A DNA stretch of 64,000 nt, from contig WRET01000005.1 in assembly GCA_009779195.1 (NCBI GenBank), positions 5,568-69,567 on the forward strand. The letters run 5' to 3'. A program made the position numbers and the translations under genes. The notes under the pieces were generated by a model. That model saw nothing but the letters and a program-made list of their open reading frames with translations. It did no database searches and was not told where the DNA came from. Each line of letters starts with the position of its first letter. Positions within the stretch are counted from its first letter, which is position 1. The DNA comes from Micrococcales bacterium (GTDB taxonomy: Bacteria; Actinomycetota; Actinomycetes; Actinomycetales; Cellulomonadaceae). Positions 5,271-62,719 of the stretch are shown here, piece after piece.

Positions 5271-6014
5271 TCACCGCAAGCGGTAGGTGACGATGGAGAC
5301 GGCCACGTAGTGGCACACGTACGCGGCCACGGTCAGCGTGTGGAAGATCTCGTGGAAGCCGAACCAGCGGGGGGACGGGTTGGGCCGTTTGAGCCCGTAG
5401 ACCACCGCGCCGACGGTGTACGCCAAGCCACCGGCGGCGATGAGGCACAGCACGCCCATACCGGCCTTGTCGTAGAACGCGGGTATGTAGAACACAGCGA
5501 CCCAACCCAGGGCCACGTAGATCGGCACGTACAGCCAGCGGGGCGCACCCAGCCAGAAGATGCGCAGGAGCAGGCCGACCAGCGCCCCGGACCACACGAT
5601 GGTCAGCAGGAGGCGGGCAGTGCTGGTGGGCAGCAAGATCACCGTCATCGGGGTGTACGTCCCGGCGATGATGAGGAAGATGTTCGTGTGGTCCAGCCGG
5701 CGCAGCACCCCGGCGACCCGCGGTGACCAGGTGCCGCGGTGGTAGACCGCCGACGTGCCGAACAACAAGAACGCGCTGATGGCGAAGACGACGTTCGCCC
5801 AGCGGACCCCTGCCGACGGTGACAGCGCGACCAGCACGATCCCCGCTGCCAGCACGAACGGCGAGATACCCGCGTGGATCCACCCGCGCAGCTTGGGTTT
5901 GATCGTCGAGGCGACGTGCCCGACCCGGTCGCCCACAGCTTCCACCGCTGCGCCGACAGCCCGTGAGAGCCCGTCGTTGCGGTGTGCGGTGTGCGGTGTG
6001 TCGGCTGTCGACAT
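5271..6014 (-). CDS. Hemolysin III / PAQR family membrane protein
   Basis: The protein has seven hydrophobic segments. Motifs: RGWIHAG, HTNIFLIIAGTYTP, HEIFHTLTVAA. Confidence 0.85.
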   Translation of the reverse strand: MSTADTPHTAHRNDGLSRAVGAAVEAVGDRVGHVASTIKPKLRGWIHAGISPFVLAAGIVLVALSPSAGVRWANVVFAISAFLLFGTSAVYHRGTWSPRVAGVLRRLDHTNIFLIIAGTYTPMTVILLPTSTARLLLTIVWSGALVGLLLRIFWLGAPRWLYVPIYVALGWVAVFYIPAFYDKAGMGVLCLIAAGGLAYTVGAVVYGLKRPNPSPRWFGFHEIFHTLTVAAYVCHYVAVSIVTYRLR

Positions 6015-28157: not shown

Positions 28158-28225
28158 CGGCTCACCCGTCCCGCAGGGACTGCCCAGGACACGCCCCGCC
28201 GCCGCGGGGAGACAACGGGCAGGAC

Positions 28226-28390
28226 AATAAGTGCGGCCTGCGTGCGATGGTCAGAAATCGGGCGATAAGGACATATAACTCTTCGTCCCGGAGACGGGGT
28301 GAAAACTTCGTCCTATGGCTCTGAGAATCTCGGCTACGTTTGACGGGCTCGTGCATCTGGAGGAGTATCCCAACTACGAGTGACCGGCGT
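28226..28390 (+). promoter_or_regulatory. Conserved AT-richer upstream element, copy 1 (paralogous to 30738-30900)
   Basis: Blocks TGCGGC, ATCGG, GGGGTGAA, TTCGT, TCTCGGCT, GTTTGACG, ATCCCA and GAGTGACCG occur in both copies. They are in the same order with small indels, 140-300 nt upstream of the paralogous ORFs. Confidence 0.5.
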
Positions 28391-28531
28391 AACAAGGTAG
28401 TTGACTCCGGTTTCGTAGGATGATTCTCAGCACGAGCGATCACTGACCGCTCGACTCGTGCTGCGTGTCGTCCAAATGCGGCTCCGCTTCAGTGTGGTTG
28501 CGGTGCCTGCGACGACGAGAGGACAGTTGTG

Positions 28532-30445
28532 ATGAGACGTTCTTTAGCAGCGAGCACTGTTGTGTGCTTGTCGTTGCTGGGGGCAGGCGCCATAATTACG
28601 GCAGATTCTAGATCTGCCGCTGCCGAGCCCAGCAACGTTCCTGGGGTAATAGATACCATTCACTATCATGTGGGGACAGAGGCCCAGGCCAGGGACTGGA
28701 TTGTCGGCCATCTGAACGAGGGCTTCGGGACCCACGCGACGCGTTGGTACTTGGGGTTCCCCGAGCGGATCATTCCGGTGGTGCTAGTCGGCGACGCGGT
28801 GACCTGGCACGAGGCTGTGGGGATGGTCGAAGACGATGCTGCAGCTGTTTTCGGTCCCAACGCTAGCCATTGGTCGATCGACCCCGACGGGACTACGTTC
28901 GCGGACTACGGACGTATCAATATGACTATTCCGCCGGACAACACACGGCCGACCTGCGCCACCGATCCTCCAGTGCGAGCCGAGGCTGGGTCGCGGACCC
29001 TGTTCAACGCATGGTGCATGGGTCCCTTGACGTACACAGTAACCATCGAGAATGTCAGGGCTGCTGACAACAACCAATCGTGGGCGGCCTCTGCGTACGA
29101 TTCCACAGGAGAACTTGCCGGTCTCTCGCCGCACGGAATCTGGATCGCCGGCCCGGGGAATGACAATCCCGGTCACAACACCAGCAGCAAAGAGCGTCTG
29201 TACGTGCTTGACCCGTCACTGCTTCTGACAAAGAAGGTGTGTACCACCACTGTTGTTGACGACTGCGACATCAATGATCCCAACGTCTGGAGAGATGAGC
29301 AGGAGATCCCGGCTGGTTCGAGCCAGGCAGTCTTCCGGGTTGAGGTCGAGAACACCGGGAATGTCGAGCTGGCCAACGTCCACATGGCGCAGGACACCAC
29401 GAAGGCGGAGGCAGGTGAGCGTGCAGTCATCATGCCGCCGACGACGCAGGCTGGCATTCCGGTCGACGGAGCAGTGTTCGCCGACAGCCTCATGCCGGGT
29501 GCAAAGGCGGCGATGATGGTCATCGTGCCGATCGACGGAACACTGGATGGTGAGCTGAAGAACTTAGCGACTGCCAACGCGGAGCTGCCGGGCGTTGTGT
29601 CCTTCCCCAACGGCTCGACAGAGACCCAGGTGGCCACGGTCGACCCGGCCAAGAAGCCGCTGTCCGATCGGTTCACGGGCAACCCGACCGTCGATGACCC
29701 CGATGGCGAACCCGGCATGGTGCCGTCCAACGAGGATGCCGCCAAGGTCTTCGAGCGGGTCAAGGCTATCGATCTCGAGAAGTACGTCTGCGATGGCGTC
29801 AGCGACTGCGACGTGCCGACCGGTGGCGACTTGGCCGACCTGGCGTCGGGTAAGAACGCTGGTGGGTGGGTCAAGATGACCACCGTGCCGATGGCCGCGG
29901 ACGCGCAGTGGCTGCTGGTCGTCACCAACACTGGCAACACCACCCTCGGCAACGTCACGCTCAAGCGTGAGGACCTGCTCGCAGGCGGCGACGGCCACGA
30001 CGGCCAGCTCGTCGGCTGCGCGATGGGCGACGACCTCAAGCTCGGACAGCTGGCCTCGGGAGAGTCGAAGACGGTGACGTGCACCACAGGTCTGATCACC
30101 AACACTGAGGAGTGGGGCTCCAAAGAAGACGTGGTCAACACCGCCAAGGTGTGTGCCGAGGTCGAAGACGACACGACCATCATGAACGGCTCGGAGGTCT
30201 GTTCGAAGGAGAGCTCGGCGGAGGTCAACACCGTGGAGGAACCGGCACCGCCGCCCGACGAGCCGACACCAAGCCCAACCCCTAGCCCGACGACACCGCA
30301 GCCTGCGCCGAAGCCTCCGGCGCCGCCGAGGCTGCTGGGCGGGACGGGTGCCAACGCGGCCCTGGCCGTGGTGCTCGGAGTGATCTTGCTGGCAGGCGGC
30401 GCCGGACTGGTCACAGTTCGGATGCGGGCACGACAGGCCCGGTAG
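28532..30445 (+). CDS. Secreted surface protein, paralogue 1 (signal peptide, unknown N-domain, DUF11/CARDB-like repeats, P/T-rich stalk, LGGTG sorting-signal-like C-terminus)
   Basis: The signal peptide is MRRSLAASTVVCLSLLGAGA. AVFRVEVENTGNVELANVHMAQD and WLLVVTNTGNTTLGNVTL are DUF11-like. The C-terminus is LLGGTGANAALAVVLGVILLAGGAGLVTVRMRARQAR. A GAGAGG RBS lies 9 nt upstream. G+C is lower than in flanking genes. Confidence 0.75.
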   Translation: MRRSLAASTVVCLSLLGAGAIITADSRSAAAEPSNVPGVIDTIHYHVGTEAQARDWIVGHLNEGFGTHATRWYLGFPERIIPVVLVGDAVTWHEAVGMVEDDAAAVFGPNASHWSIDPDGTTFADYGRINMTIPPDNTRPTCATDPPVRAEAGSRTLFNAWCMGPLTYTVTIENVRAADNNQSWAASAYDSTGELAGLSPHGIWIAGPGNDNPGHNTSSKERLYVLDPSLLLTKKVCTTTVVDDCDINDPNVWRDEQEIPAGSSQAVFRVEVENTGNVELANVHMAQDTTKAEAGERAVIMPPTTQAGIPVDGAVFADSLMPGAKAAMMVIVPIDGTLDGELKNLATANAELPGVVSFPNGSTETQVATVDPAKKPLSDRFTGNPTVDDPDGEPGMVPSNEDAAKVFERVKAIDLEKYVCDGVSDCDVPTGGDLADLASGKNAGGWVKMTTVPMAADAQWLLVVTNTGNTTLGNVTLKREDLLAGGDGHDGQLVGCAMGDDLKLGQLASGESKTVTCTTGLITNTEEWGSKEDVVNTAKVCAEVEDDTTIMNGSEVCSKESSAEVNTVEEPAPPPDEPTPSPTPSPTTPQPAPKPPAPPRLLGGTGANAALAVVLGVILLAGGAGLVTVRMRARQAR

Positions 30446-49397: not shown

Positions 49398-49916
49398 GTG
49401 CACCTCGACGGGACCGGGCCGGTCGGCGCCGCGGATGTCACCTGCGTGCACGACGAGGCGTGGTTCGAGTCGTTGATGACGGCGCACGCCAAGGCGGTGC
49501 ACCGGTACTTCGCACGTCGTAGCGACTGGTGCGACGTGGACGACCTCACTGCCGACGTCCTGGCGACCGCTTGGCGCCGCCGCGACGACGTCCCCGACGA
49601 GGCACCCCTGGCCTGGTTGTACCGCACAGCCGGTTTCGTCCTGGCCAACCACCGGCGCAAGGGCCGCCCCGTACCCGTCGCCGAGCTGCCCGAGGCCGCC
49701 GACCTGGACGACCCGGCGTGGCACGCGGTCCGCGACGACGAGCTGCGCCAGGCCCTGGCCGCGGTGGGCCCCCGCGACCGCCAGGTCCTGCTGCTCAACG
49801 CCTGGGAGGGCCTGGTGGGCGAAGGGCTTGCCGCAGCGCTCGGCGTGAGCCGTACGGCAGCGGACTCGGCGCTCTCACGCGCACGGTCCCGACTGAGAGC
49901 AGCGTGGCCGACATGA
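49398..49916 (+). CDS. ECF-type RNA polymerase sigma-70 family factor
   Basis: The region-2-like stretch is AVHRYFARRSD..VDDLTADVLATAWRR. The region-4 HTH is RQVLLLNAWEGLVGEGLAAALGVSRTAADSALSRARSRL. Confidence 0.85.
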   Translation: MHLDGTGPVGAADVTCVHDEAWFESLMTAHAKAVHRYFARRSDWCDVDDLTADVLATAWRRRDDVPDEAPLAWLYRTAGFVLANHRRKGRPVPVAELPEAADLDDPAWHAVRDDELRQALAAVGPRDRQVLLLNAWEGLVGEGLAAALGVSRTAADSALSRARSRLRAAWPT

Positions 49917-49989
49917 CCCATCTGGATGACACGTGCGCAAGGCGGACCGTCGCCGGGACACAGACAGTACGGACTGCGAGGAGGTGCGC

Positions 49990-51177
49990 ATGAGCAGACC
50001 TGACGATGCCGAGGTGGCGGCTCGTCTGGGTGCCGCGGACCCTGCCGCTGACCTCCAGGTAGACCTGGACCAGATCCGCACCATGGTCCGAGACAGGCTT
50101 GCCGTCGACGCTGACGAGCCGGTCGTCTCCGGTCCTGAGGAAGGTCCGCATCCGGTTGCTCCTGGGCCTGGTCTGTCGCTCGTCGGGCCGAGCCCGCACG
50201 AGGTGGGTCCGACCCCTGGTGTCCCGGCCCCGGGTCTGGCGTCTGTGGTGCCGATGCGCCGGCGTTGGGTCGGTTGGGCCGCCGCCGCCGCGGCGGTCGT
50301 GGTGGTCGTGGTAGGCGGCGGGTACGTGGTCTCGTCTCTTGCCTCCAGCCGGTCGGGCAGCCCAGTAGATGCCGCTCCGTCCCCGCTGGAGCAACCAGAA
50401 GGCACCCAGGGGGGCGCAGACAGGGCACCTGCTCCCACTGGCCCTGGTGAACCTGCCCCACCGGCGGTCCGGCATATCGCGGTCGGCCTGCCAGACACCG
50501 CTGGTACTGCCACGGTGTACCAGGTCGCAGCGCCCCGGGTGGACCCCGAGCGGTTGGCCCAGGCGTGGGGCGTGCCCGGGCCGGTGCGCCGGACCCCTGA
50601 CGGCTGGGCCGCCGGGGACAGCACACGCACCCTGCGTATCACCGAGGCCGACGGCCTGGTCCACGTCGATTTCTCCGACACCTCGGTCACTGGCCAGTCC
50701 ACCGACCAGGCAGCCGCCCGCGCTGCCCTCGTCTCGGCCGGGGTCGACGTGTCCGTCCTGGACGTCTCCACGTCCGCCGGGGTCGTCCACCTGAACCAGG
50801 TGGTCGCAGGCCACCCCACATCCCTGGGCTGGCAGGTCCAGATGAGCCCGTCCGGCCCCCGCGCCATCACCGGAACCCTCGGCGGCGCGATCACCTCGCA
50901 AGGCACCCAGGCTCTGGTCAGCCCCGTAGCCGCCGTCGCCCGCCTGGACGACCCAGCCTTCGCTTCCTGGTCCGCCACCATGCCCGACCTCACCGGTCCC
51001 CTCCTCACCGACGTCGCCCAGGGAACCATTCCCCCCTCCGTCACCACCGTCGCGATCACCAGTGCCCGCCTCGGCCTGGCCCTAGACGTCTCTTCCGGCA
51101 CCCCCCGCCTCGTCCCCGCCTACGCTCTGACCTCGGAGTACGGAACCAACCTAGCCCCCGCCCTCGCCGACCCCTAG
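49990..51177 (+). CDS. Single-pass membrane protein downstream of the ECF sigma (putative anti-sigma factor)
   Basis: The call rests on position, a cytoplasmic N-terminus, the TM helix WVGWAAAAAAVVVVVVGGGYVV, and a large extracytoplasmic domain. I recognised no ZAS motif. Confidence 0.45.
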   Translation: MSRPDDAEVAARLGAADPAADLQVDLDQIRTMVRDRLAVDADEPVVSGPEEGPHPVAPGPGLSLVGPSPHEVGPTPGVPAPGLASVVPMRRRWVGWAAAAAAVVVVVVGGGYVVSSLASSRSGSPVDAAPSPLEQPEGTQGGADRAPAPTGPGEPAPPAVRHIAVGLPDTAGTATVYQVAAPRVDPERLAQAWGVPGPVRRTPDGWAAGDSTRTLRITEADGLVHVDFSDTSVTGQSTDQAAARAALVSAGVDVSVLDVSTSAGVVHLNQVVAGHPTSLGWQVQMSPSGPRAITGTLGGAITSQGTQALVSPVAAVARLDDPAFASWSATMPDLTGPLLTDVAQGTIPPSVTTVAITSARLGLALDVSSGTPRLVPAYALTSEYGTNLAPALADP

Positions 51178-51270: not shown

Positions 51271-51401
51271 AGAGGTGTACATTCCTCCGCACGTCCTGCG
51301 TCAGAAGGTATACATTCCTCCGCACGTCCTGCGTCAGAAGGTATACATTCCTCCGCATGTCCTGCGTCAGAAGGTATACTCCTGCGCAGGCCCCTGCGTC
51401 A
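51271..51401 (+). repeat. 33-bp tandem direct repeat (3 near-identical copies plus 1 degenerate) ending at the RBS of the DUF4143 ATPase gene
   Basis: The unit is GAAGGTATACATTCCTCCGCACGTCCTGCGTCA, at 51271, 51304 and 51337, with a degenerate copy at 51370. It is followed by AGGAGGAG and the ATG at 51412. Confidence 0.9.
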
Positions 51402-51411
51402 GGAGGAGTGG

Positions 51412-52842
51412 ATGAAACCGGGCGATGTGGTCCAGCGACTGACCTCAGGCAACCTGTGGTGGCGCGACCCGACAGACTGGGCCAGCCGTGACGTGCAGCT
51501 CCGTGCAGCAGCTACGGCTGGGTACACGTACGAGCCGGGCGTGCTGTCGTCGGTACCACGCGGCGGGCTCGTGCTCCTGCGCGGCCCACGTAGGGTCGGC
51601 AAGAGTGTCGAGCTCAAGCGGTTCGCCCAGCGGGTCCTGGGCTCCGGAGAACCACCGCGTGCGGTGATCCACGCTGCGGTCGACGGGTGGCGAGCCTCAG
51701 ACCTGCGTTCTCTGGTGGAGGTCGGCAAACGGCTGGCCCCGCCGGGCACCGTGCACCGGTGGTGGCTTGTCGACGAGATCTGCGGGGTACCCGGGTGGGC
51801 CGCCGAGATCAAGAACCTGCGAGACAACGACCCCGAGTTCGCCACCGACACCGTCGTGCTCACCGGGTCCAACGCCCGAGACCTGGCTCAGGCGACATCC
51901 GCGCTGGCGGGTCGTCGAGGCGATGTCGCCCGTCCTGACCGCACGATCCTGCCGATGGGTTTCCGCACGTTCGTCACGCTGATGCTCGCTGCGCGAGATC
52001 AGGCACCACCGGCCACCCCCCGGCTCGCTGGCGCCGACTTGCGGTCTGCGCATGCCGCACAGGTTTTCCACGAGCTGATCGCCTGGGAGTCCGAGCTGAC
52101 CGCGTGGTGGGAGATCTACCTCCAGGTCGGCGGGTTTCCCCAGGCAGTCTCGGCGCAGCTGGGAGGGGACGACCCGGCTCCGGTCGTCCAGGCACTGTTC
52201 GACGTGGTCCAGCGCGACATCTTCGGGTCGGCACAGATGTCCGAGCCCCAGGTAGCGGCACTCCTGGCGCGGATCGCCTCGAACATCGCCAGCCCGATGA
52301 ACACCAGCACGGTGGCCACGGATGTCGCCGTCAGCCACGACACTGGTGCCCGACGCGTGGCAGACCTTGTGACCTCGTACGTCCTGTGGACGTGCCCTGC
52401 TGGGGCCGACCAGCGCCCTGTGCTGCGCTCGCAGGCGAAACGGTATTTCACCGACCCTCTCCTGGCTCGTCTGGCGCACCTGCGCAACCCGGCGGTTCCC
52501 AACCCTGACGTGACCCGGCTCACCGAGCAGCAGCTCGGTATGGCACTGCTGCGTGCTGCTGAGGCCGCCACATCGGGTATCTACCCCGGGTTCGACCAGG
52601 TGCTCTACGAGCGCACCAAGACACGCAAGGAGATCGACTTCGTCGGGCCGCTGCTCGACCCAGTGGCGATCGAGGCCAAGTACACCGACACCGGCAGGTG
52701 GCAAGGGGAAGCCGCCACGGTGGACGCGAGCCCTTACGCGGGGGTGCTGGCTACCCGTGGGGTGCTCGACACGTCATCGGTCTCACCCGCCAACGCGTGG
52801 GCGGTCCCAGCGTCCTTGCTGGCCTTCAGCATCGACGTGTGA
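51412..52842 (+). CDS. ATP-binding protein of the AAA_14 / DUF4143 family
   Basis: N-terminal GNLWWRDP (the NPWW-like motif), Walker A GPRRVGKS, Walker B WWLVDEI, and C-terminal KEIDFVGP (DUF4143-like). There is a strong RBS. Confidence 0.75.
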   Translation: MKPGDVVQRLTSGNLWWRDPTDWASRDVQLRAAATAGYTYEPGVLSSVPRGGLVLLRGPRRVGKSVELKRFAQRVLGSGEPPRAVIHAAVDGWRASDLRSLVEVGKRLAPPGTVHRWWLVDEICGVPGWAAEIKNLRDNDPEFATDTVVLTGSNARDLAQATSALAGRRGDVARPDRTILPMGFRTFVTLMLAARDQAPPATPRLAGADLRSAHAAQVFHELIAWESELTAWWEIYLQVGGFPQAVSAQLGGDDPAPVVQALFDVVQRDIFGSAQMSEPQVAALLARIASNIASPMNTSTVATDVAVSHDTGARRVADLVTSYVLWTCPAGADQRPVLRSQAKRYFTDPLLARLAHLRNPAVPNPDVTRLTEQQLGMALLRAAEAATSGIYPGFDQVLYERTKTRKEIDFVGPLLDPVAIEAKYTDTGRWQGEAATVDASPYAGVLATRGVLDTSSVSPANAWAVPASLLAFSIDV

Positions 52843-53072
52843 CGAACAACGTGCCACTCACACCCTGTGCGACCAGGGCGTGGCCGAGTGCGGCGCGGAC
52901 TCACCAGACGCGCTGGAGCTCTGGAAGGGTTCGTATGCCTCGGGGGCGCAGGACCTTCTTATTAAGGGTTTTGATGACAATCTGGTCATAGGATGATATG
53001 CCGTTTTCTCGGGTGGCGGTGCGTTTATGGGAATTCTACGCTGGCGGTGTTGTATTCGTCTGGAGGTGTGTG

Positions 53073-53636
53073 ATGAAACGTCTGACAAAGGCTGCGATCG
53101 CCACGGGTGGTGCGGCGGTGCTGCTTGTCGGTGGTGCCGGGACGGTCGCGTACTGGACTGACACCGCCACAGCGACGGGCACGTCGGTCACCTCCGGTGA
53201 CCTGTCGGTCACCGACGGCTCGTGCGGCGCCTGGGACTACGACGACTCCGACGAGGGTGGGACTGCCGGGGACATCGTGCCTGGTGACCTGCTGGTGACC
53301 ACGTGCGAGGTGACGGTCGCCGGGACGGGTACGCACCTGGGGGTCACCGCAGAGCTCGACGCCAGCTCGACGTTCGACTCAGCCGCCCCCAACCCCCTGT
53401 CGACGGCGCTCGTGCTGACCACGAGCGACATCGCGGTCAACGGTGTGTCCGTGCCGGTGGACCCGACGCAAGGGGTGTCCATCACGGGCACCTCGAACAC
53501 CATCACCGTGACGGTGACGGCGGAGTTTCCCTATGGAACCGACACCAGCCCGGGTAATGACACCCAAGACCTGACAGCTTTGCTGGACAACGTGGTCATC
53601 AACGTCGTCCAGACGCACACCCCGCCAACGCCGTGA
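53073..53636 (+). CDS. TasA/camelysin-like exported protein with a SipW-type (alternate) signal peptide
   Basis: MKRLTKAAIATGGAAVLLVGGAGTVAYWTDTATATGTSVTSGDLSV parallels B. subtilis TasA ...GGGTWAAFND...ASGTLDL as I recall it. An AT-rich promoter region lies upstream. Confidence 0.7.
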   Translation: MKRLTKAAIATGGAAVLLVGGAGTVAYWTDTATATGTSVTSGDLSVTDGSCGAWDYDDSDEGGTAGDIVPGDLLVTTCEVTVAGTGTHLGVTAELDASSTFDSAAPNPLSTALVLTTSDIAVNGVSVPVDPTQGVSITGTSNTITVTVTAEFPYGTDTSPGNDTQDLTALLDNVVINVVQTHTPPTP

Positions 53637-53646
53637 CCGCAGCGCC

Positions 53647-54216
53647 GTGCGCCAGGTGGTGAGGTCCGTCGCAAGGCTGGCTGCGGGGCTCGTCGTGGTG
53701 GTGGCCACGGGGGCGCTCGCGGTGGGCCTGGTCGTTCCACGCCTGGCCGGGGCCAGCACGTACACGGTGACCAGCGAGTCCATGACGCCGGGGCTGCCGG
53801 TCGGGTCGCTGGTGGTGGTCCGCGGCGGCCAGCCGGTCGCCATGGGTGACATCATCACCTACCAGCGCTGGTCAGGAGCCACGCCGGTGGTGACCCACCG
53901 GGTGGTGGGGGTCGGTATCAGCACGGACGGACGGCTCGCCTACACCACCCGCGGTGACGCCAACACCGCCGACGACCCAGGGTTCGTGCGGCCCGAGCAG
54001 GTGCGAGGGGTGCTGTGGTACCAGGTGCCGCACCTGGGTAGGCTCACCGGGGCGCTGACCGCCTCGCAGCGACACACCGCCGTGATCGTGCTCGCGGGCG
54101 TGCTCGTCGCCTACGCGCTGTGGCAGCTGGTGCAGGCGGGTCGTGAACGCAGGCCCACGCCGCGCAGCGCTCGTCCGCCTGCTCATGCGAGAAGGCACGT
54201 CGGGAGGTTGCTGTGA
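53647..54216 (+). CDS. Signal peptidase I, archaeal/SipW type (S26B)
   Basis: TSESMTPGLPVGSLVVV (the catalytic Ser box), THRVV (the His box), RGDANTADD, and a C-terminal TM helix. Confidence 0.85.
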   Translation: MRQVVRSVARLAAGLVVVVATGALAVGLVVPRLAGASTYTVTSESMTPGLPVGSLVVVRGGQPVAMGDIITYQRWSGATPVVTHRVVGVGISTDGRLAYTTRGDANTADDPGFVRPEQVRGVLWYQVPHLGRLTGALTASQRHTAVIVLAGVLVAYALWQLVQAGRERRPTPRSARPPAHARRHVGRLL

Positions 54217-54992
54217 TGACGGGGGTGCCAGCAGGAGCGGTCGCGCTGTGCCTCGCGGTCGGTGCGTCCCTGCTGGCCTGCCCGATGGGTGCCGCCAGTG
54301 CCGAGCGCGGCACCGTGCTGGCCGCGGTGCCCAGTGCTGCGCCCACGGGGCCGGCCCGGGTCGAGCTCTCCGTGGACGGCACCACCTGGTCGCACGACCT
54401 GGTGGCCGACCTGTTCGAGCCCGACCTGGTGTGGGTGCCCGGCGAGGTGGCCACAGCGACTGTGTACGTGCGCACGTCGTGCTCACAGGCCCAGGGCAGC
54501 GCTGATGTCGAGCTGGACAGTCCTGCCCTGGTGGTGCGCACCCGCGTCTACGCGGGGACGTGGACGAGCCCGCCGTCGTTGTTCGTCGTCGACGCCGACC
54601 AGATAGCCCCTCTCGACGTGGAGGTGACCTACGACCCGCAGGCCGACGACAGCACACGGCTCATGGCCGAACCGCTGAGCATCGTCGTGACCGCGGCCTG
54701 CTACGACGCCACACCCGCGCCTCCCCCCTCGGCGAAGGTGCACCCCACGACGAGTCCTGGTGCCACGAGTCCTGGTGCCACGCGTGCTGGTGCCATGACG
54801 AGTCGCGCCACGACCCCCTTCGCCACAGGTGCCGCGGACCGTCCAGCCGTTGCGGCGTCCTCTGGCCGGGGGCTGGCCAGGACCGGCGTCGGCGTCGCAG
54901 GCACGGTGGTCGTCGTGCTGGCGCTCGGGTTCGTCGGCGCCTGGCTGCTGTCGTTGCGCACGAGAGCCGGGCAGGTAGGCCCAGATGCCTGA
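54213..54992 (+). CDS. Secreted protein with a LAxTG-type cell-wall sorting signal
   Basis: It has a Sec signal peptide and a P/T/S-rich stalk. The C-terminus is GLARTGVGVAGTVVVVLALGFVGAWLLSLRTRAG (LARTG, then a hydrophobic stretch, then a basic tail). Confidence 0.7.
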   Translation: MMTGVPAGAVALCLAVGASLLACPMGAASAERGTVLAAVPSAAPTGPARVELSVDGTTWSHDLVADLFEPDLVWVPGEVATATVYVRTSCSQAQGSADVELDSPALVVRTRVYAGTWTSPPSLFVVDADQIAPLDVEVTYDPQADDSTRLMAEPLSIVVTAACYDATPAPPPSAKVHPTTSPGATSPGATRAGAMTSRATTPFATGAADRPAVAASSGRGLARTGVGVAGTVVVVLALGFVGAWLLSLRTRAGQVGPDA

Positions 54993-55533
54993 GCCGCGAC
55001 GACCACAGGCACCCAACCGGGCGGTGCGCGCGCTCGTGCGGGGGCTTGTGCTCGTCACGGGGCTCGTGGGGGTCGGACTGGTCGGCGCTGCGGCAGCGTG
55101 GGCTGGCTGGTCCGCGCAGGCGAGCGCATCAGGCACCGAGCTGCGGTCGGGGACGCTGGACATGCAGGTCTCGGGACTGGACAACAACCTGGCTGGCCCT
55201 GGCGGGTCGGCCACGTTGCCCACGCTGACGCTGGCCGCCGCCGAACCGGGCGCCAGCACGTCCGCGTCGTTCACGATCAACAACGCCGGGACTGCGACGT
55301 TCGTGCCTGACGTGGTCGGCACCGCCGACGAGCCCCTGACCTCGTGGCTGCACACAACCACCTGGTACGGCGGCACGACGTGCACCAACGGCACGACCAG
55401 CGCCCCCACGCTCGCTGCGGGCGCCAGCACCTCGGTGTGCGTGGTCGTCACGCTGGACTCCGGTGCTCCTGCGTCAGTGCAGGGGACGTCGGCGAACGTC
55501 ACCTTGGCCCTCACCGCCACACAGGTGCGGTGA
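54985..55533 (+). CDS. TasA/camelysin-like exported protein (second)
   Basis: GLVGAAAAWAGWSAQASASGTELRSGTLDMQV follows a hydrophobic signal segment. The rest is a beta-rich S/T/A-rich body. Confidence 0.6.
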   Translation: MPEPRRPQAPNRAVRALVRGLVLVTGLVGVGLVGAAAAWAGWSAQASASGTELRSGTLDMQVSGLDNNLAGPGGSATLPTLTLAAAEPGASTSASFTINNAGTATFVPDVVGTADEPLTSWLHTTTWYGGTTCTNGTTSAPTLAAGASTSVCVVVTLDSGAPASVQGTSANVTLALTATQVR

Positions 55534-56051
55534 TGACGCGCACCGGCGCACGGCCGCTGGCGGCATGGGTCGTCGGGGCGGCGCTGCTCGGAACGTTGGC
55601 GGGCACCGTCGCGCACAACACACCATGGGCACAGGCGTACTGGACCGACACCGCCACTGTCACCAGCGGGCCGTTCACCACGTGGGCGCTGACCAACGTG
55701 TCGTGCCCCAACCCGGCGTGGGGCAGCAACGCAGACCTGAAGTGGCAGGTGCCGTCGGGTTCGTCAGCGACGGTGTCGATCGCGCTGGACCCGACGAGCC
55801 CTCCTGTCACCGGGTTGTCGTACTGGTCGACGAGCCTGGCCCCCGGTTCGCCCCTGACCACGACCGGCGACGAGGCCACGTGGGGAGTGGGCAGCAACAA
55901 CCTCTGGGAAAGTGCCCAGTTCGACGGGACGTGGAGCCTGGTGGTGACCTCCCCTGGCGGGGCCTGGACCGCGACCAGCACCGGAACCTGGAGCGTCCAC
56001 TACGCCAACAGCACAGCCACCTGCACGGTCGACCCGGTCAGCGGCCCTTGA
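55533..56051 (+). CDS. Exported protein with the same AYWTDTAT N-terminal signature (third family member)
   Basis: The N-terminus is MTRTGARPLAAWVVGAALLGTLAGTVAHNTPWAQAYWTDTATVTSGPF. The ATG overlaps the previous stop (TGATG). Confidence 0.6.
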   Translation: MTRTGARPLAAWVVGAALLGTLAGTVAHNTPWAQAYWTDTATVTSGPFTTWALTNVSCPNPAWGSNADLKWQVPSGSSATVSIALDPTSPPVTGLSYWSTSLAPGSPLTTTGDEATWGVGSNNLWESAQFDGTWSLVVTSPGGAWTATSTGTWSVHYANSTATCTVDPVSGP

Positions 56052-56641: not shown

Positions 56642-59600
56642 ATGAGATCGCGCGCGACGGCGATAACGGTGGTGCTTGCGCTTGTCGTGTTCGCGGCGCT
56701 GAACCTGGTCCCAGCGCAGGCGGCGAACACGGTTCCGTTCGGCATCCGGTACCAGGCGAACGCCAACGGCGCGATTATCGCAATCGGCAACAACCTGCTG
56801 ACGTGCCCCGACTCGGCAGCGAACTGCGCCGCGGCCCGCGCTGGCGGCAACTACAACAACAACAGCTTTACGATGACCAACCTCGACGCTGACGACGTGG
56901 CCTCGACGTTCAACTCTTCGTCCTCGTCGTTGTTGCTGCCTGACGGTGCCGTCGTGCAGTGGGCAGGGCTGTACTGGGGGGCCCGGCTGACGGCGGGCAG
57001 CGGCGGCCAGGCCGGTACCGGCACCCGCACGCAGATGCAGCTGCGCCCTCCCGGAGCCGCGGCGTACATCCCGGTGGCCTCGCAGTTCACGTTCGGGCCC
57101 AACACGTCCAGCTATGGCGCCTACCAGGAGTTCGCCGACGTCACCGCCATCGTCGCCGCTGGTGGGAACGGTCCCTACTGGGGTGCGAACGTCGTCGCCG
57201 CGACCGGTGTGGACCGGTACGCCGGGTGGTCGCTGGTCGTGGCGTACGCGGCCCCCAACATGCCGCTGCGCAACCTGACAGTGTTCGACGGGTTCGACAT
57301 GGTCAGCACCTCGAACCCGCAGACGATCACGATCGACGGGTTCTTGGCCCCCTGGACAGGGCCTGTCGACGCCCAGCTGTCCATGGTCGCCTACGAAGGC
57401 GACCTGTACCAGGCCCCGGACTACAGCCTGCTCAACACCACCCAGCTGGCGACCGCGTTGTCGCCAGGGTCGAACTTCTTCAACGCCACGAACGACACCA
57501 ACGGAACATCGGTGACCACCCGCATCCCGGCTGACAAGAACATGCTCGGGTTCGACATCAAGAACATCGGTGCCTCGGGGGCTATCCCGAACGGTGCGAC
57601 TAGCGCCACGTTCACCTTCTCTAGTGGTGGCGACACCTATTACCCAGGTGTTCTCACCACGGCTATCAGCATTTACTCGCCAGATTTCACGACCTCGACC
57701 AAGTCCGTGATCAACCTTTCGGGCAACAACCCTTCTAGGCCTGGTGACACGCTGCAGTACACCCTCGCTTTCTCCAACACCGGGATGGACTCGGCGCTGC
57801 AGGTCGTCGCCGAGGACGCGCTGCCACCAGGGGTGAGCTTCGTGCCCGGCTCGATCAGGTGGGTCGCGTCGTTCGGTGTCCCGCCGACCAGCCAGACCGA
57901 TGCTGCCGACGGTGACAGAGCCGAGTACGACCCGACGACACGAACGGTCCGGGCCCGTCTGGGCACCAGCGTCACTCCAGCGGGCGGGACGATGGTCGGC
58001 ACCGTGGACGGGCAGGGCACCGGGTCGCAGAACAAGCTGATGTTCAACGTCGTCGTCGACCCGGGAGCCGGTGGCACCACCGTGGCGAACCAGGGGACCT
58101 TGCAGTACCGCACCAAGACAGCCGGTGTGGACGCCACCTATGTGACCAACGTGGCCAGCACCGACGTCGTCGCCCAGGCCGACGTGGCCGTCTCCAAGAC
58201 GATGAGCCCGCGCCCGACGCCGGTCGGCGGCCAGAGCGTGTCCACGGTGACGGTGACCAACAACGGCCCGAACGACGCGACCGGTGTCGTGCTCACCGAC
58301 CCGCTTCCCCCGGGCTTGACGAACGTACAGGTCAGCACAGCATTTGGTGTGACCTGCACTATCGGCGCCACCACGGTCAGCTGCCCGTTGGGGACGGTGG
58401 CCAACGGCGCGTCGGTCACTGCGGTCATCCGCGGCACTGTCCCGTCTGGTTCGACCGACACGTCGGTGACGAACGTCGCCACCGTGTCGACCACGGCGTA
58501 CGACCCTGTGACGACGAACAACGTGTCGTCCGACACGGTCTCCTTGGTCCGCCAGGCTGACCTGGCGATCACCAAGTCCGCCTCCGCGTCCACCGCGCCG
58601 CCTGGCGCTGAGGTCACCTACACCATCACTGCGACGAACAACGGCCCGTCGGACGCCACCAACGTCGTGGTCAGCGACCTGCTCGATCCCTCCCAGCTGG
58701 CGCTGGTCTCTGCTGTGCCGTCCACCGGCACCTGCATCACCCCAGGTAACGGCCTGGCGTGTGTCGTGCCGACGCTCGCAGTCGGCGCGTCGGTGAGCGT
58801 GACGGTCACCGCGACGCTCGACTCGCGCCTGTCGCAGGGCACCGTGGTCTCCAACACCGCCCAGGTGACCTCGGCCACGCTCGACCCTGTCACCACCAAC
58901 AACCAGGCGAGCTCGCAGGTCACGGTCGGTGCCCCACAGGCCGATATCGTGCTGACCAAGACTGCCCCGGCCGACGCTGTGGCTGGTACGTCGATCACCT
59001 ACCAGCTCGACGCGACGAACGACGGCCCCTCGGACGCCACCAACGTGGTGATCAGCGACCCACCACCTGCTGGTGTGACGTTCACCTCGGTGAGCACCAC
59101 CCGCGGTAGCTGTGCCATCAATGGCGCTGGTGCGGTGGCGTGCAGCGGTATCTCGTTGCCCGCAGCCTCGTCGATGAGGGTCACCGTCGTCGGGGCCGTC
59201 GCCCCGGACGCCAACCCCGGACCGGTCACCAACACTGCCACGGCCACGGCGTTCGGCCGCGACACCACCGCGTCGGCGACGACCAACGTGGTGCGGTCCT
59301 TCGACCTGTCCGTGACCAAACGGGCGAACCGCTCGTCCCTGCCTGCCGCTGCGGGCCTGGACGTGGACTACACCATCACCATCACCAACCATGGGCCGTC
59401 GACTGCCACAGGTGTCCAGCTCTCCGACGTCGTCCCGGCAGGTCTTGTCGTCGACGCTGTCACCCCTGCTGCCAGCCTCACGTGCGGGAGCCTGGCGGCT
59501 GTCCCCTTGGTCTGCGGTCTCAACGGTTCGATCCCGCCGGGCGGCAGCCAGGACATCGTCGTGCAGACGCACTCGGCCGCGGACCTCAGCACCGGACCGG

Positions 59601-62600
59601 ACCTCACTGAGACGGTCACCGTCTCCGCGACCGGACAGACCCCGGCCACGGCGAGCTGGACCCTCACGGGGTCTGGGCAGGCTGACCTGGCGGTGACCAA
59701 GACAGCGCCGGCCGCAGTCGTGGCGGGCACCATGGTCACCTACGAGATCACGGTCGAGAACACCAACGACCCGACGTGGGACGACATCACGGCGCTCAAC
59801 GTGGAGCTCACAGACACCCTGCCCGCGGGGGTGACGTTCCTTGCGTCCACCGCACCCGGGTCGCTGACCACCTCAGGGTGCGCAGCCGTGGGGCAGGACG
59901 TGACCTGCGCACTGGCCGCCACCGCTCCGCAGACTTCCACGACGGTCAAGATCTCTGTGCTCGTCGACCCAGGGCTCGCTGCGGGCACCACCGTGGTGAA
60001 CACCGCGACAGTGACATCGACGACTGCTGACCCGTCGCTGGACAACAACAGCTCGACGGTGACCTCGCAGGTCGAGACGAGCACCGACCTGTCGGTCCAC
60101 GACCTCACCGTCACGCCGGCTGGACCGTACACAGGAGCCGGGTCGTGGGTGACGGTCGCTTTCACCATCACCAACGACGCTGATGGTCCGTCAGTGGCCC
60201 ATGACGTGCAGTTCCGCCTCGACTCGGTCGCTGACCTGGGTGTGGCGGTGGACCCGAACCGCTGCGCCATCGCCAACGGTGAGTTCGTGTGCACGATCAC
60301 CGCTGTCGACCTCGCCCCTGGTGAGTCGGTGACCGAGACGTTCGACATGGTTGTCCTCGGGTACGTCGAACCGGGCAGCTACCCCGTCACGGTCTCCACG
60401 TCGACAACCACCCCTGAGACCACCCTGACGAACAACACAGTGTCGGCCAACCTGGTGGTCGGCGCCGCAGGCACGGCCCTGCGGGCTACCAAGTCGGCCG
60501 AAGACACAGTGTCTAACCCGGCTGACGGGCACGCGGCATACACCGCCGGGACCCCGTTCCGCTACCAGGTCGAAGTGAGCTCTCCGAACGCCACACCGCC
60601 AGCCCCGTACGGTGCTGACGCGCAAGACGTCATGGTCACCGACGTCCTCCCAGCCGGGTTCACCGCGACGTCGGTGGTCTCGACCCAAGGCACATGCTCG
60701 ATCGGCGACGACGGCACCGCCTTCAAGTGCTTGCTGGGCACCGTGCCGAGCTATATGCCTACCGCGGCGGCACCTGTGACGATCACCGTGATCGGTATGG
60801 TCGCCTCTGACACTCCCACAGGTGCAGCAGGTGAACAGGTCGACAACGTCGCGACGGTGACGTCGTCCACCCCGGACCTGGCGGGCAACCCGACGTCGTT
60901 GGTGCCTTCGGCTGCCGTCGACATCATCGCCGAGGCGGACCTGCGCCTGATCAAGAACGCCGACTCCAACCCGGTCTACGTCGGCGGGCAGGACAGCTTC
61001 ACGCTCACGGTGGTCAACGCTGGTCCGTCGGTGGCGACCAACGCCACGGTCGCCGACACCCTGCCCGTCGGGTTCGACTACGTGGCTTCCCCAGGGTGCC
61101 AGCAGGTCGGTGGCACACCAGCCACCGGTGTGCAGGTGGAGTGCACGATCGCCGAGGTTGGTCTGGCCGACTCGTCGTCGGTGCGGGTGTTCGTCTCCAT
61201 GGACCCCTTCGGCGGACGGGTGCCAGGGTGCCGACCAGGTGACCCGTGCGACCCGGTGTACCCACGCACGGTGACCAACACCGCGTCGGTCAGCGCTGCG
61301 GCCCTCGACCCTGACCTGTCGAACAACGCCGCATCGGTCGACGTGGAGGCCGACAGGCTCGCCGACCACGCCATCATCGGGTCGGTGAGCACCTCCACAC
61401 CCACGGCTGGGGGACAGGTGCTCTACAGCGCCATGTCGATCAACAACGGACCGTCGGTCGCTGACAACCCGACCGGGGTGACGACCTTCCCACCCGGTTT
61501 CGTGCCGATGGCCTCTGCCCCGCCAGACGTGCCGGGCAACCTCTGCACGTGGGACCCGCCAGCGCCACCCGACCCGCAGGACGTTGCCTGGTCGACCACC
61601 CAGTACACGTTGAGCTGCGAGGCGATCGACGTCCCACCGCTGTTCAAGGTCTTCGAACCCGCTATCCCGGTGTTCAGCCAGGTCGCCATGTGGATCCCGG
61701 CTGACACCCCGCCGGGTCTGTACACGACCAAGGTCGTGGTGGGTACCACCACCCCCGAGTCGGACTACGAGAACAACACGTCGTTGGTGCCGGTCAACGT
61801 CCAGCAGGTCTCTGACCTGTCGGTCACCAAGACTCTCGTCGACCCGATGGTGGCTGGCCGCCAGGCGACGTGGCGCGTGGACGTGACGAACGCTGGTCCG
61901 TCCGTGGCCGACAACGTCGTGGTCGCCGACGCTGTGCCTGAGGGGATGACCTTCGTCTCGGCGAGCGTCGAAGGCGGTGCTGCGTGCTCCACACCGACGA
62001 CGGGCAACGCAGAGTCCGTCGTCAGCTGTCCGGTGGGCCGGCTGGGTGTGGGCGGGTCTGGAACGGTCCTGGTGACGTTCGCCGTCCCCTTGGGCGCGGC
62101 CGGCACCCAGCAGTGCAACGCTGTGCTCGTCGGCTCGTCGTCGCTCGACCCGGACGCGACCAACAACAAAGCCGAGGCGTGCGACGTCCCGGTGCTGCCC
62201 CCAGCGGCAGACGTCGGCGTCGCCATCACGCAGAGCACCTTGTCGCCTGACGGGCAGGAGGCCCGGTTCTTGGTGGAGGTCACCAACAACGGGCCGGGGG
62301 ACGCCACCAGCGTCGTGGTGGAGTTCGACGTGCCCGACGGTCTGACGATCACGTCCACGGTGGTGGCCGCCAGCTCGGGTGCCACCGGCGTCGTGGGGTG
62401 CACCGGCCGCCTGGTCTGCACGGTCGACACGATCGTGCCTGGCGGAAAAGTCGTCTACTCCATCGTCGGGTCGCTCTCACCGACCGCTGGGTCCAACCTC
62501 ACGCTGAAAGTCACGGTCACCCACAACGAGCCTGACCCTGTCGAGGCCAACAACACCGACAGCGCCACGCTCGTCCTGCCAGGCACTTCTGCTTCGGCAG

Positions 62601-62719
62601 ACCCGCCTGCCACCATGGCCGCGACCGGCGCCCCGGCCTTCTTGCTGTTCGCCATCGCTGCTTTCGTCGTCAGCTGTGGGGTGTGGTGGCTGGTCGTCGC
62701 CCGCCGTGCGCGCCAGTGA
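56642..62719 (+). CDS. Giant (2025 aa) cell-surface adhesin-like protein: signal peptide, N-terminal non-repeat domain of about 330 aa, roughly 11-12 DUF11 repeats, sorting-signal-like C-terminus
   Basis: The signal peptide is MRSRATAITVVLALVVFAALNLVPAQA. The repeats start with ADxAxTK and carry TNNGPSDATNVV motifs. The C-terminus is MAATGAPAFLLFAIAAFVVSCGVWWLVVARRARQ. Confidence 0.85.
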   Translation: MRSRATAITVVLALVVFAALNLVPAQAANTVPFGIRYQANANGAIIAIGNNLLTCPDSAANCAAARAGGNYNNNSFTMTNLDADDVASTFNSSSSSLLLPDGAVVQWAGLYWGARLTAGSGGQAGTGTRTQMQLRPPGAAAYIPVASQFTFGPNTSSYGAYQEFADVTAIVAAGGNGPYWGANVVAATGVDRYAGWSLVVAYAAPNMPLRNLTVFDGFDMVSTSNPQTITIDGFLAPWTGPVDAQLSMVAYEGDLYQAPDYSLLNTTQLATALSPGSNFFNATNDTNGTSVTTRIPADKNMLGFDIKNIGASGAIPNGATSATFTFSSGGDTYYPGVLTTAISIYSPDFTTSTKSVINLSGNNPSRPGDTLQYTLAFSNTGMDSALQVVAEDALPPGVSFVPGSIRWVASFGVPPTSQTDAADGDRAEYDPTTRTVRARLGTSVTPAGGTMVGTVDGQGTGSQNKLMFNVVVDPGAGGTTVANQGTLQYRTKTAGVDATYVTNVASTDVVAQADVAVSKTMSPRPTPVGGQSVSTVTVTNNGPNDATGVVLTDPLPPGLTNVQVSTAFGVTCTIGATTVSCPLGTVANGASVTAVIRGTVPSGSTDTSVTNVATVSTTAYDPVTTNNVSSDTVSLVRQADLAITKSASASTAPPGAEVTYTITATNNGPSDATNVVVSDLLDPSQLALVSAVPSTGTCITPGNGLACVVPTLAVGASVSVTVTATLDSRLSQGTVVSNTAQVTSATLDPVTTNNQASSQVTVGAPQADIVLTKTAPADAVAGTSITYQLDATNDGPSDATNVVISDPPPAGVTFTSVSTTRGSCAINGAGAVACSGISLPAASSMRVTVVGAVAPDANPGPVTNTATATAFGRDTTASATTNVVRSFDLSVTKRANRSSLPAAAGLDVDYTITITNHGPSTATGVQLSDVVPAGLVVDAVTPAASLTCGSLAAVPLVCGLNGSIPPGGSQDIVVQTHSAADLSTGPDLTETVTVSATGQTPATASWTLTGSGQADLAVTKTAPAAVVAGTMVTYEITVENTNDPTWDDITALNVELTDTLPAGVTFLASTAPGSLTTSGCAAVGQDVTCALAATAPQTSTTVKISVLVDPGLAAGTTVVNTATVTSTTADPSLDNNSSTVTSQVETSTDLSVHDLTVTPAGPYTGAGSWVTVAFTITNDADGPSVAHDVQFRLDSVADLGVAVDPNRCAIANGEFVCTITAVDLAPGESVTETFDMVVLGYVEPGSYPVTVSTSTTTPETTLTNNTVSANLVVGAAGTALRATKSAEDTVSNPADGHAAYTAGTPFRYQVEVSSPNATPPAPYGADAQDVMVTDVLPAGFTATSVVSTQGTCSIGDDGTAFKCLLGTVPSYMPTAAAPVTITVIGMVASDTPTGAAGEQVDNVATVTSSTPDLAGNPTSLVPSAAVDIIAEADLRLIKNADSNPVYVGGQDSFTLTVVNAGPSVATNATVADTLPVGFDYVASPGCQQVGGTPATGVQVECTIAEVGLADSSSVRVFVSMDPFGGRVPGCRPGDPCDPVYPRTVTNTASVSAAALDPDLSNNAASVDVEADRLADHAIIGSVSTSTPTAGGQVLYSAMSINNGPSVADNPTGVTTFPPGFVPMASAPPDVPGNLCTWDPPAPPDPQDVAWSTTQYTLSCEAIDVPPLFKVFEPAIPVFSQVAMWIPADTPPGLYTTKVVVGTTTPESDYENNTSLVPVNVQQVSDLSVTKTLVDPMVAGRQATWRVDVTNAGPSVADNVVVADAVPEGMTFVSASVEGGAACSTPTTGNAESVVSCPVGRLGVGGSGTVLVTFAVPLGAAGTQQCNAVLVGSSSLDPDATNNKAEACDVPVLPPAADVGVAITQSTLSPDGQEARFLVEVTNNGPGDATSVVVEFDVPDGLTITSTVVAASSGATGVVGCTGRLVCTVDTIVPGGKVVYSIVGSLSPTAGSNLTLKVTVTHNEPDPVEANNTDSATLVLPGTSASADPPATMAATGAPAFLLFAIAAFVVSCGVWWLVVARRARQ

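Follow-up and report, generated by a model that had tools for sequence, protein, structure and literature searches.

The question raised by the locus considered here is whether five consecutive genes of an actinobacterium encode the parts of a surface fibre and, if so, by what means such a fibre could be fastened to the cell. The genes, designated g1–g5 in their order, occupy positions 53,073 to 56,051 of a window of 64,000 nucleotides (nt), i.e., the whole stretch of DNA that was analysed (positions 5,568 to 69,567 of contig WRET01000005.1, forward strand, from a Micrococcales bacterium of the family Cellulomonadaceae, assembly GCA_009779195.1). An initial annotation, made from the sequence alone, had described this cassette as an operon for SipW/TasA-like fibres with a sortase-anchored component. 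Both parts of this description have gained computational support, the first from the family models TIGR04089, TIGR04088 and TIGR02228, the TasA fibre structure 8aur and the models matched by the g4 family, and the second from the sorting signals which end 66 of 70 proteins of the g3 family. All the peptides quoted there, namely GAGTVAYWTDTATATGTSVTSGDLSV, AWAGWSAQASASGTELRSGTLDMQV, AQAYWTDTATVTSGPF, SESMTP, THRVV, GDAN and LARTG, are present verbatim. In our opinion, the operon probably builds a cell-wall-anchored surface fibre of the TasA superfamily, a donor-strand polymer with the arrangement wall–g3⇐g1(n)⇐g4⇐g5, although appreciable room for other readings is left.

The product of g1 is a full-length member of the family TIGR04089 (114.1 bits at a cutoff of 60, profile positions 1–179 of 179). 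It begins with a SipW-type signal peptide, M1–A26, which passes TIGR04088, the model of SipW-cognate signal peptides, with 29.7 bits at a cutoff of 19. By analogy with TasA, where TWA is separated from AFND, the cleavage is likely to occur between TVA and YWTD. The signal is followed by an N-terminal extension of 16 residues, Y27–G42 (YWTDTATATGTSVTSG), and then by a beta-sandwich domain. In the AlphaFold2 model of g1, built with 24 relatives, the predicted local distance difference test (pLDDT) values were 78 on average and 88–96 in the core; residues 1–34 had values <50 and were unstructured in the monomer, and the first strand was formed by residues 43–51. Foldseek comparison of this model with 350,542 PDB chains gave the TasA fibre 8aur_A as the top match (probability 0.98, E 7.6e-3), the next-best matches being chaperone-usher pilins and CanA. 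Among the residues invariant in the g1 relatives are W28, PGD70-72, N162 and Q180. In public records, such relatives from Micrococcales, Cellulomonas and others are named 'alternate-type signal peptide domain-containing protein'.

The second gene encodes, as had been annotated, a signal peptidase I of the archaeal type, which matches TIGR02228 with 75.4 bits at a cutoff of 51.85. Its alignment to human SEC11A (7p2p_A, E 9.6e-7) covers the catalytic Ser, His and Asp, with SESM, THRV and GDAN of g2 placed opposite SGSM, VHRV and GDNN, and hydrophobic segments were found at both its N- and C-terminus. The equivalog model of SipW from Bacillus, NF046067, gave 67 bits, below its cutoff of 190. Judged by sequence, the enzyme is SipW-like by class and not an orthologue of SipW.

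Three exported proteins had initially been credited with signals of the SipW-dependent (TasA/camelysin) pattern. As to the signals, g1 passes TIGR04088, g5 remains with 14.7 bits below the cutoff of 19, and g4 taken alone has no match; as to the proteins themselves, the likeness to TasA holds for g1 and g4 and fails for the body of g5. A SipW-type signal and an extension (AWA, then GWSAQASASGTELRSGTLDMQV) are also present in the product of g4. Window g4 alone gave no match in scans with curated hidden Markov models (HMMs) or Pfam. Among 62 g4 relatives, 48 match TIGR04089, 46 TIGR04088 and 45 the Pfam family PF12389, Peptidase_M73 (at E up to 1, the best being 7.4e-9), and 11 match each of the models NF046066 (TasA) and TIGR04090 (BsaA). 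Profiles were compared by hhalign after removal of the signal peptides, the family profiles being derived from 83 loci. The g4 family was aligned with the g1 family over 133 columns (probability 95.4%, E 1.7e-8), and the g3 family with those of g4 (89 columns, 95.6%, E 1.1e-8) and g1 (98 columns, 74.8%, E 2.6e-5). With TasA, whose sequence used in the alignments was confirmed against 8aur, the g4 family gave E 8.2e-5 over 45 columns, which is better than the result of the g1 profile and still local. In the AlphaFold2 model of g3 (34 sequences), the pLDDT values of the core were 85–96, and the top Foldseek match was the AbpA bundling pilus 7ueg_A (probability 1.00, E 1.4e-3), with FimG, CS20 and Csu pilins as the next matches. 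These profile links, the models matched by the g4 family and the fold matches of g1 and g3 show that g1, g3 and g4 contain paralogous TasA-superfamily domains. The best fold matches of the g1 and g3 models in the PDB are donor-strand filaments, i.e., the TasA fibre, AbpA and then chaperone-usher pilins.

The relation to the TasA/camelysin fold, on which the annotation depended, was thus found both in structure comparison (g1 with 8aur) and in HMM comparison (g4 relatives with PF12389). The protease label of the Peptidase_M73 family is historical. This family, which bears such a name, is matched by the g4 relatives, and one could suppose that the TasA-like proteins are camelysin-type metalloproteases; this is extremely improbable, because the sequences show neither HExxH nor any other motif for metal binding, and TasA from the same Pfam family was solved as a structural fibre protein (8aur). 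The window proteins themselves are not recognised by PF12389: the match of g1 covers residues 2–47 only (E 0.12, 12.7 bits, below the cutoff of 22.5), and g3, g4 and g5 have no match.

The third gene had been described as encoding a Sec-secreted protein with LARTG, a transmembrane segment and a basic tail. The layout was confirmed and consists of an ordinary signal peptide, a TasA-superfamily domain, a P/T/S/A-rich stalk, LARTG (54873–54887), a hydrophobic segment of 23 residues (VGVAGTVVVVLALGFVGAWLLSL) and the basic tail RTRAGQVGPDA; it is the kinship that has to be amended, as g3 is a TasA-superfamily paralogue of the fibre proteins and not an unrelated Sec protein. The P/T/S/A-rich stretch of ~55 residues before LARTG resembles wall-spanning stalks, and a 15-bp unit present three times at 54750–54795 encodes TSPGA repeats of this stalk. 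The closest homologues of g3 carry LATTG and LASTG. Among stop-to-stop open reading frames (ORFs), 70 members of the g3 family were found in 65 of the 83 loci; in 66 of them the C-terminus is a sorting signal, i.e., [LIV][PA]x[TSA]G with a hydrophobic segment and a basic tail, and the commonest motifs are LPDTG, LPRTG, LPGTG and LARTG. The models PF00746 (Gram_pos_anchor), TIGR01167 and NF058582 (Micrococcales LAVTG) are matched by 21, 19 and 17 of 41 g3 relatives, respectively. In Actinobacteria, class E sortases favour LAxTG. The signal peptide of g3 in the window (54228–54290) has no basic residue and includes a lipobox-like LLAC, the related protein P0002 having LAAC; the idea of g3 being a lipoprotein was rejected, since this Cys is not conserved in the family.

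The presence of an LAxTG protein, along with RrgB far down the list of Foldseek matches, may remind one of a classical Gram-positive pilus polymerised by sortase (SpaA-type). The operon can hardly encode such a pilus, because the sorting signal occurs in only one of the four proteins, neither the window nor the surroundings of 79 related loci contain a pilus-specific sortase, SpaA-type families are matched by none of the window proteins, and mature g1 relatives contain no invariant Lys.

The consensus of the g3 family shows a plain PAxA site, then ~5 residues and the first strand LSxDGxTW, which lines up by eye with DLSVTDGSCGAW of g1, where the corresponding distance is 16 residues. A conserved counterpart of the N-terminal extension found in g1, g4 and g5 is therefore missing from g3. 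Another explanation is a released or membrane-held matrix fibre similar to those of TasA or BsaA, with g3 as a mere neighbouring wall protein. Part of the related cassettes are indeed without g3, and the BsaA oligomers of Clostridium perfringens strain 13 are membrane-associated rather than wall-associated (PMC11580942); nevertheless, we find this explanation quite improbable, as g3 is paralogous to g4 and g1, has a fixed position with overlaps to both the peptidase and the g4 genes and accompanies the cassette in 65 of 83 loci.

The product of g5 consists of a signal peptide, a YWTDTAT extension shared with g1 and an unrelated body of ~135 residues with two conserved Cys. AYWTDTAT was the only match in BLASTP of g5 against g1, and the hhalign comparisons of g5 with g1, g3 and g4 were restricted to 17–32 N-terminal columns. 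Iterative HMM searches merged g1, g3, g4 and g5 by round 3 and were distrusted on account of shared signal peptides and composition; unlike them, the profile comparison of mature parts set g5 apart. Neither the g5 body nor the N-terminal domain of g3 is covered by any library model. An HMM of the g5 body alone found 6 ORFs among the 83 loci, and an exhaustive search of 1.84 billion representative proteins yielded 8 clusters. The same HMM did not reach the C-terminal domains that are fused to g4 or to a second peptidase in other genera, so the fifth position of the cassette is filled by unrelated domains.

Natural fusions indicate a possible partner of g5. The protein P0066 is a g4::g5 fusion, in which a g4 domain (43% identity) is continued by AQA-WTDTATVT and a g5 body (51% identity); since the core of the g5 signal is missing from it, a frameshift artefact can be dismissed. 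An internal W[TN]DxGT[IV]xSG precedes the C-terminal domain in 11 of 12 long g4 proteins of the Isoptericola type (e.g., L007:7928-8839). Such fusions are as expected if the internal strand fills the groove of g4, and their sequences support the pairing of g5 with g4.

Summarizing these data, the following mechanism may be proposed for the wall-anchored fibre. The proteins g1, g3, g4 and g5 would be exported through Sec; the twin-arginine translocation (Tat) pathway was rejected, as no twin-arginine motif is evident in the cassette sequences. The peptidase g2, using its Ser, His and Asp, would cleave the atypical signal peptides carried by g1, g4 and g5 and bare an N-terminal extension of ~16 residues, which would enter the open beta-sandwich of the next subunit as a donor strand. 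Both donation and acceptance of a strand would be possible for g1, forming the shaft, and for g4, acting as an adaptor. Having no TasA-like acceptor domain, g5 would only donate and would cap the distal end, and g3, having no conserved donor extension, would only accept and would end the chain at the cell-proximal side. A housekeeping sortase, of the class E type and encoded elsewhere, would link g3 to peptidoglycan via LARTG. The fibre would grow at its base, and g3 would terminate the growth. One acceptor-only anchor, one donor-only protein and two proteins with both functions fit a linear donor-strand polymer with defined ends. We infer the cleavage site, the cleaving enzyme, polymerisation, polarity and wall linkage, as well as a biological role, which may be adhesion or biofilm formation.

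Several observations weigh against this mechanism. The fold evidence for g1 on its own is modest, its template-modelling (TM) scores being low (0.30–0.35); for g1 and g3 together, the fold matches are weak (TM 0.29–0.39, E 1e-3 to 8e-3), and promiscuous matching is common among beta-sandwiches. The profile of 24 g1 relatives found nothing among PDB sequences even at E = 10, and its hhalign comparison with TasA was limited to 40 columns (SGTL...PGD) with E 0.006 and a probability of 6%. Window g3 alone matches none of PF00746, TIGR01167 and NF058582; the stretch from its likely cleavage site to the first strand comprises 21 P/A-rich, non-conserved residues, and it could carry a non-conserved extension. 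A sortase motif (an ORF of the TLxTC type) is absent both from the 64-kb window and from the 6-kb flanks of the 79 related loci, so that wall anchoring would rely on a sortase encoded elsewhere; the matches of the motif search proved to be PdxT-like glutaminases and an ATPase of the ATP-binding cassette (ABC) type, not sortases. When ORFs filtered by GC content at the third codon position (GC3) were used, 27 of 87 cassettes were without g3, at least some of these g3 genes having been missed by the filter; anchoring is thus optional. Finally, donor-strand pairing with its polarity and the assignment of g2 to each of the precursors are our own deductions.

It is also conceivable, but in our view unlikely, that the exported proteins are separate non-polymerising adhesins or coat proteins, which merely have in common an unusual signal peptide requiring a peptidase of its own, with g3 as a monomeric wall protein. 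The polymerisation is indeed only deduced, the fold matches of g1 and g3 are weak, and the TasA-like paralogue BsaB from C. perfringens forms no long oligomers (PMC11580942). At the same time, the closest structural counterparts are without exception donor-strand filaments, the monomer model leaves the conserved N-terminal extension disordered, and a set of acceptor-only, donor-only and bifunctional proteins, together with fusions in cis, is hard to explain for monomers.

The proposed fibre cassette has many relatives. Among GTDB species representatives, 262 relatives of g1 were confirmed by tblastn. The best 79 of these 262 loci belong to Micrococcales (Isoptericola, Promicromonospora, Cellulomonas, Xylanimonas and Krasilnikoviella), to Propionibacteriales (Nocardioides and Aeromicrobium) and to one Kitasatospora. 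The order g1–peptidase–g3–g4 is the rule, gene order is kept across 87 cassettes, and its recurrence in many genera indicates that the cassette is more than a chance arrangement. Some genomes have two cassettes, one with g3 and another without it. In the small clade of the window, the fifth position is taken by a g5-type gene; in Isoptericola, g4 itself is extended by a C-terminal domain, and in Propionibacteriales the place belongs to a second SipW-like peptidase with a fused exported domain. The latter fusions were observed at L036:8462-9601, L081:8381-9433, L046:7737-8681 and ~50 other Propionibacteriales loci; in their C-terminal part, a linker and a hydrophobic segment bearing a TWAAWTD-type motif lead to an exported beta-rich domain of ~130 residues, so that the whole looks like an enzyme joined to a protein with its own substrate-type signal. 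At L066:6554-7762, the peptidase ORF extends to a C-terminal LAPTG and a hydrophobic segment, and this could be either a peptidase-anchor fusion or an assembly or frameshift artefact.

The layout of the locus in the window is given in Table 1. The third-position GC of g1–g5 is 0.84, 0.87, 0.83, 0.86 and 0.88, values typical of genes in a window with 69% GC, and these five are therefore real genes; antisense ORFs with high GC3 inside g1 and g5 were dismissed as shadow frames. The annotation had regarded all five genes as translationally coupled. Three junctions do overlap (GTGATGA between g2 and g3, 8 nt between g3 and g4, and TGATG between g4 and g5); g1 and g2 are merely close, a gap of 10 nt separating the stop of g1 from the GTG of g2.

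Table 1. Positions and presumed roles of the elements of the cassette in the 64,000-nt window.
Element	Positions	Strand	Description
Leader	52930-53072	+	AT-richer leader, putative promoter region; GC 0.58-0.60
g1	53073-53636	+	187 aa; presumed core fibre subunit
g2	53647-54216	+	189 aa; dedicated archaeal/endoplasmic reticulum (ER)-type signal peptidase I (SipW-like)
g3	54213 (or 54216)-54992	+	258-259 aa; presumed wall-anchored base subunit
g4	54985-55533	+	182 aa; TasA-like paralogue, presumed adaptor or minor subunit
g5	55533-56051	+	172 aa; presumed tip or cap

The AT-rich promoter region of the annotation was confirmed in respect of composition, the GC content at 52800–53249 being 58–60% versus ~69% elsewhere in the window; as a promoter, the leader is putative. 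Scans found neither a sigma-70 consensus promoter nor an intrinsic terminator. A ribosome-binding site, GGAGG, is located at 53062–53066, 7 nt 5' of the g1 ATG. The -10-like CTACGCT lies at 53036–53042, 31–37 nt 5' of the same ATG, and its form CTACnCT is invariant across five related upstream regions; it fits the TANNNT type and may be a -10 box. The Rfam search of the leader found no family and no riboswitch, and its folding revealed no unusually stable structure (z = -0.56). A sub-threshold Rfam match to BTE inside the coding sequence of g1 was considered spurious.

The genes flanking the cassette are unrelated to it. Upstream, there are genes of an ABC transporter, a sigma factor of the extracytoplasmic function (ECF) type and an AAA_14/DUF4143 ATPase; on the downstream side are a cytidine deaminase gene in convergent orientation and a gene of a 2025-aa DUF11-repeat protein. 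A related contig has these five genes as well, with RmuC and further unrelated genes behind them, and the cassette is therefore a self-contained module. The 2025-aa surface protein (56642–62719, + strand) has 11 DUF11 repeats and a C-terminus composed of PPATMAATG, a hydrophobic segment and RRARQ; provided that this variant LAxTG-type signal is real, it is likely a second sortase substrate, situated 600 nt beyond the cassette, past the cytidine deaminase gene. The gene of the ECF-type sigma factor and, 17 nt later, a 414-aa ORF without a Pfam match, possibly an anti-sigma factor, occupy 49398–51177 (+ strand), ~2–3.5 kb upstream of the cassette. A 33-bp tandem repeat at 51273–51406 (4.1 copies, 91% matches) is present in the 5' part of the AAA_14/DUF4143 ATPase ORF and reads as repeated GIHSSARPASE; it is probably located upstream of the real start of this ATPase. 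More distantly, the GC content at 28001–30000 is 0.617 compared with ~0.69 elsewhere, and from ~26 to 35 kb only one ORF (27425–28087, minus strand) passed the GC3 filter. This region may be foreign DNA.

TasA-superfamily fibres are emerging as an ancient scaffold of biofilms and adhesion common to bacteria and archaea, and the way in which such fibres acquire a fixed beginning, a fixed end and a point of attachment is known only from models. The cassette is a compact case, in which each role apparently belongs to a separate gene: a donor-only tip, an adaptor, a shaft and, as a substrate of sortase, an acceptor-only base. This layout is also present in cultivable genera such as Isoptericola, Cellulomonas, Promicromonospora, Nocardioides and Aeromicrobium, which makes polarity, peptidase specificity and covalent wall anchoring directly testable. 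If the proposal is true, Actinomycetota would have one more surface appendage in addition to sortase pili and Tad pili; as a concept, this is not new. An LPXTG-anchored TasA-like subunit has already been proposed for Firmicutes (PMC11580942; bioRxiv 10.64898/2026.01.04.697558), a layout of anchor, core, adaptor and tip has been published for haloarchaeal tafi (PMC11821415), and g1 is covered by the curated model TIGR04089. New here, as far as can be judged from sequences, are the LAxTG protein as a fibre paralogue without a conserved donor extension, the presumed role of g5 as a donor-only, clade-specific tip, the fusions linking g4 to the presumed tip and the wide occurrence of the anchored layout in two actinobacterial orders. 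As the annotation had assumed, a literature search found no experimental work on such cassettes in Actinomycetota.

Among known systems, TIGR04089 (exp_by_SipW_III) has g1 as its full-length member and gives a name to no protein other than the g1/g4 type. A tip, an adaptor, a rod and a terminating subunit likewise make up the linear donor-strand polymers of chaperone-usher pili (Fim, Pap, Csu and CFA/I); these systems, however, are Gram-negative and require a periplasmic chaperone and an outer-membrane usher. As this machinery is not homologous, the resemblance is one of mechanism only.

The tapA-sipW-tasA operon of Bacillus subtilis shares with the cassette a signal peptidase of the same class and a fibre subunit with the TasA fold. 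Around the cleavage site and beyond it, TWA, AFND and SGTLDL of TasA correspond to TVA, YWTD and SGDLSV of g1, and the PGD and N...Q motifs are common to both. No window protein matches the TasA model NF046066 or the TapA models, and the cassette is not orthologous to this operon. According to published accounts, TapA supplies a donor strand and holds the fibres non-covalently. The anchor of the cassette, in contrast, would receive a strand and be attached covalently, so that probably the opposite end of the fibre would be at the wall in comparison with Bacillus.

The closest bacterial analogue is the sipW-bsaA-bsaB-bsaC operon of C. perfringens, also with a SipW-type peptidase and several TasA-like paralogues (PMC7395162; PMC11580942). 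BsaA undergoes donor-strand exchange by means of a disordered N-terminal segment, which is supported by mutagenesis (PMC7395162; PMC11580942), and in the assembly model the N-terminus becomes available for the next exchange once SipW has cleaved (PMC11580942). Most C. perfringens strains have one BsaB homologue with LPXTG, speculatively proposed as a wall anchor, and genes of BsaA or TasA often adjoin those of LPxTG, fibronectin, signal peptidase and sortase proteins (PMC11580942). The differences are that BsaA locks its strands by a Lys-Asn isopeptide bond, whereas mature g1 relatives are without invariant Lys, that a sortase gene is adjacent in C. perfringens and not in the cassette, and that gene order and accessory proteins are not the same. 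The conserved isopeptide triad Lys/Asn/Glu of the 'exchange and lock' type is missing, as judged from the lack of an invariant Lys, and none of the window proteins matches TIGR04090. According to a recent preprint on AbpX, Actinomycetota sequences belong to the central TasA cluster, and in bacterial abpX loci LPXTG anchor proteins are joined to the fibre by strand complementation in AlphaFold3 models (10.64898/2026.01.04.697558).

The closest functional analogue is represented by haloarchaeal Tat-fimbriae (tafi), which were placed in the TasA superfamily (bioRxiv 10.64898/2026.01.04.697558) and consist of the tip TafC, the adaptor TafE, the core TafA and the anchor TafF, with TafD as a dedicated signal peptidase (PMC11821415; PMC12337348). 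Both systems have a locus-encoded signal peptidase I and four structural roles based on a shared fold. The N-terminal domain of TafF resembles the subunits and was modelled to accept the donor strand of TafA, and its C-terminus holds TafF at the envelope (PMC11821415). The mechanism proposed above for the cassette agrees, by analogy, with the models of both BsaA (PMC11580942) and tafi assembly (PMC11821415). The two systems differ in export, tafi subunits using the Tat pathway and the cassette proteins having Sec-type signals with no evident twin-arginine motif, and in attachment, TafF being held by a membrane span and g3 carrying a sortase sorting signal; they belong to Archaea and Actinomycetota, respectively, with no detectable sequence orthology. 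We suggest, as a tentative idea that may well prove wrong, that Micrococcales and Propionibacteriales possess a third kind of Gram-positive pilus. Its polymerisation would need no sortase, each exchange would be licensed by a peptidase of the ER/archaeal type, the start would be given by a tip with donor function only, either g5 or a tip domain joined in cis to the adaptor, and an acceptor-only LAxTG/LPxTG paralogue would provide covalent fixing to peptidoglycan, making this pilus the bacterial, sortase-terminated counterpart of tafi.

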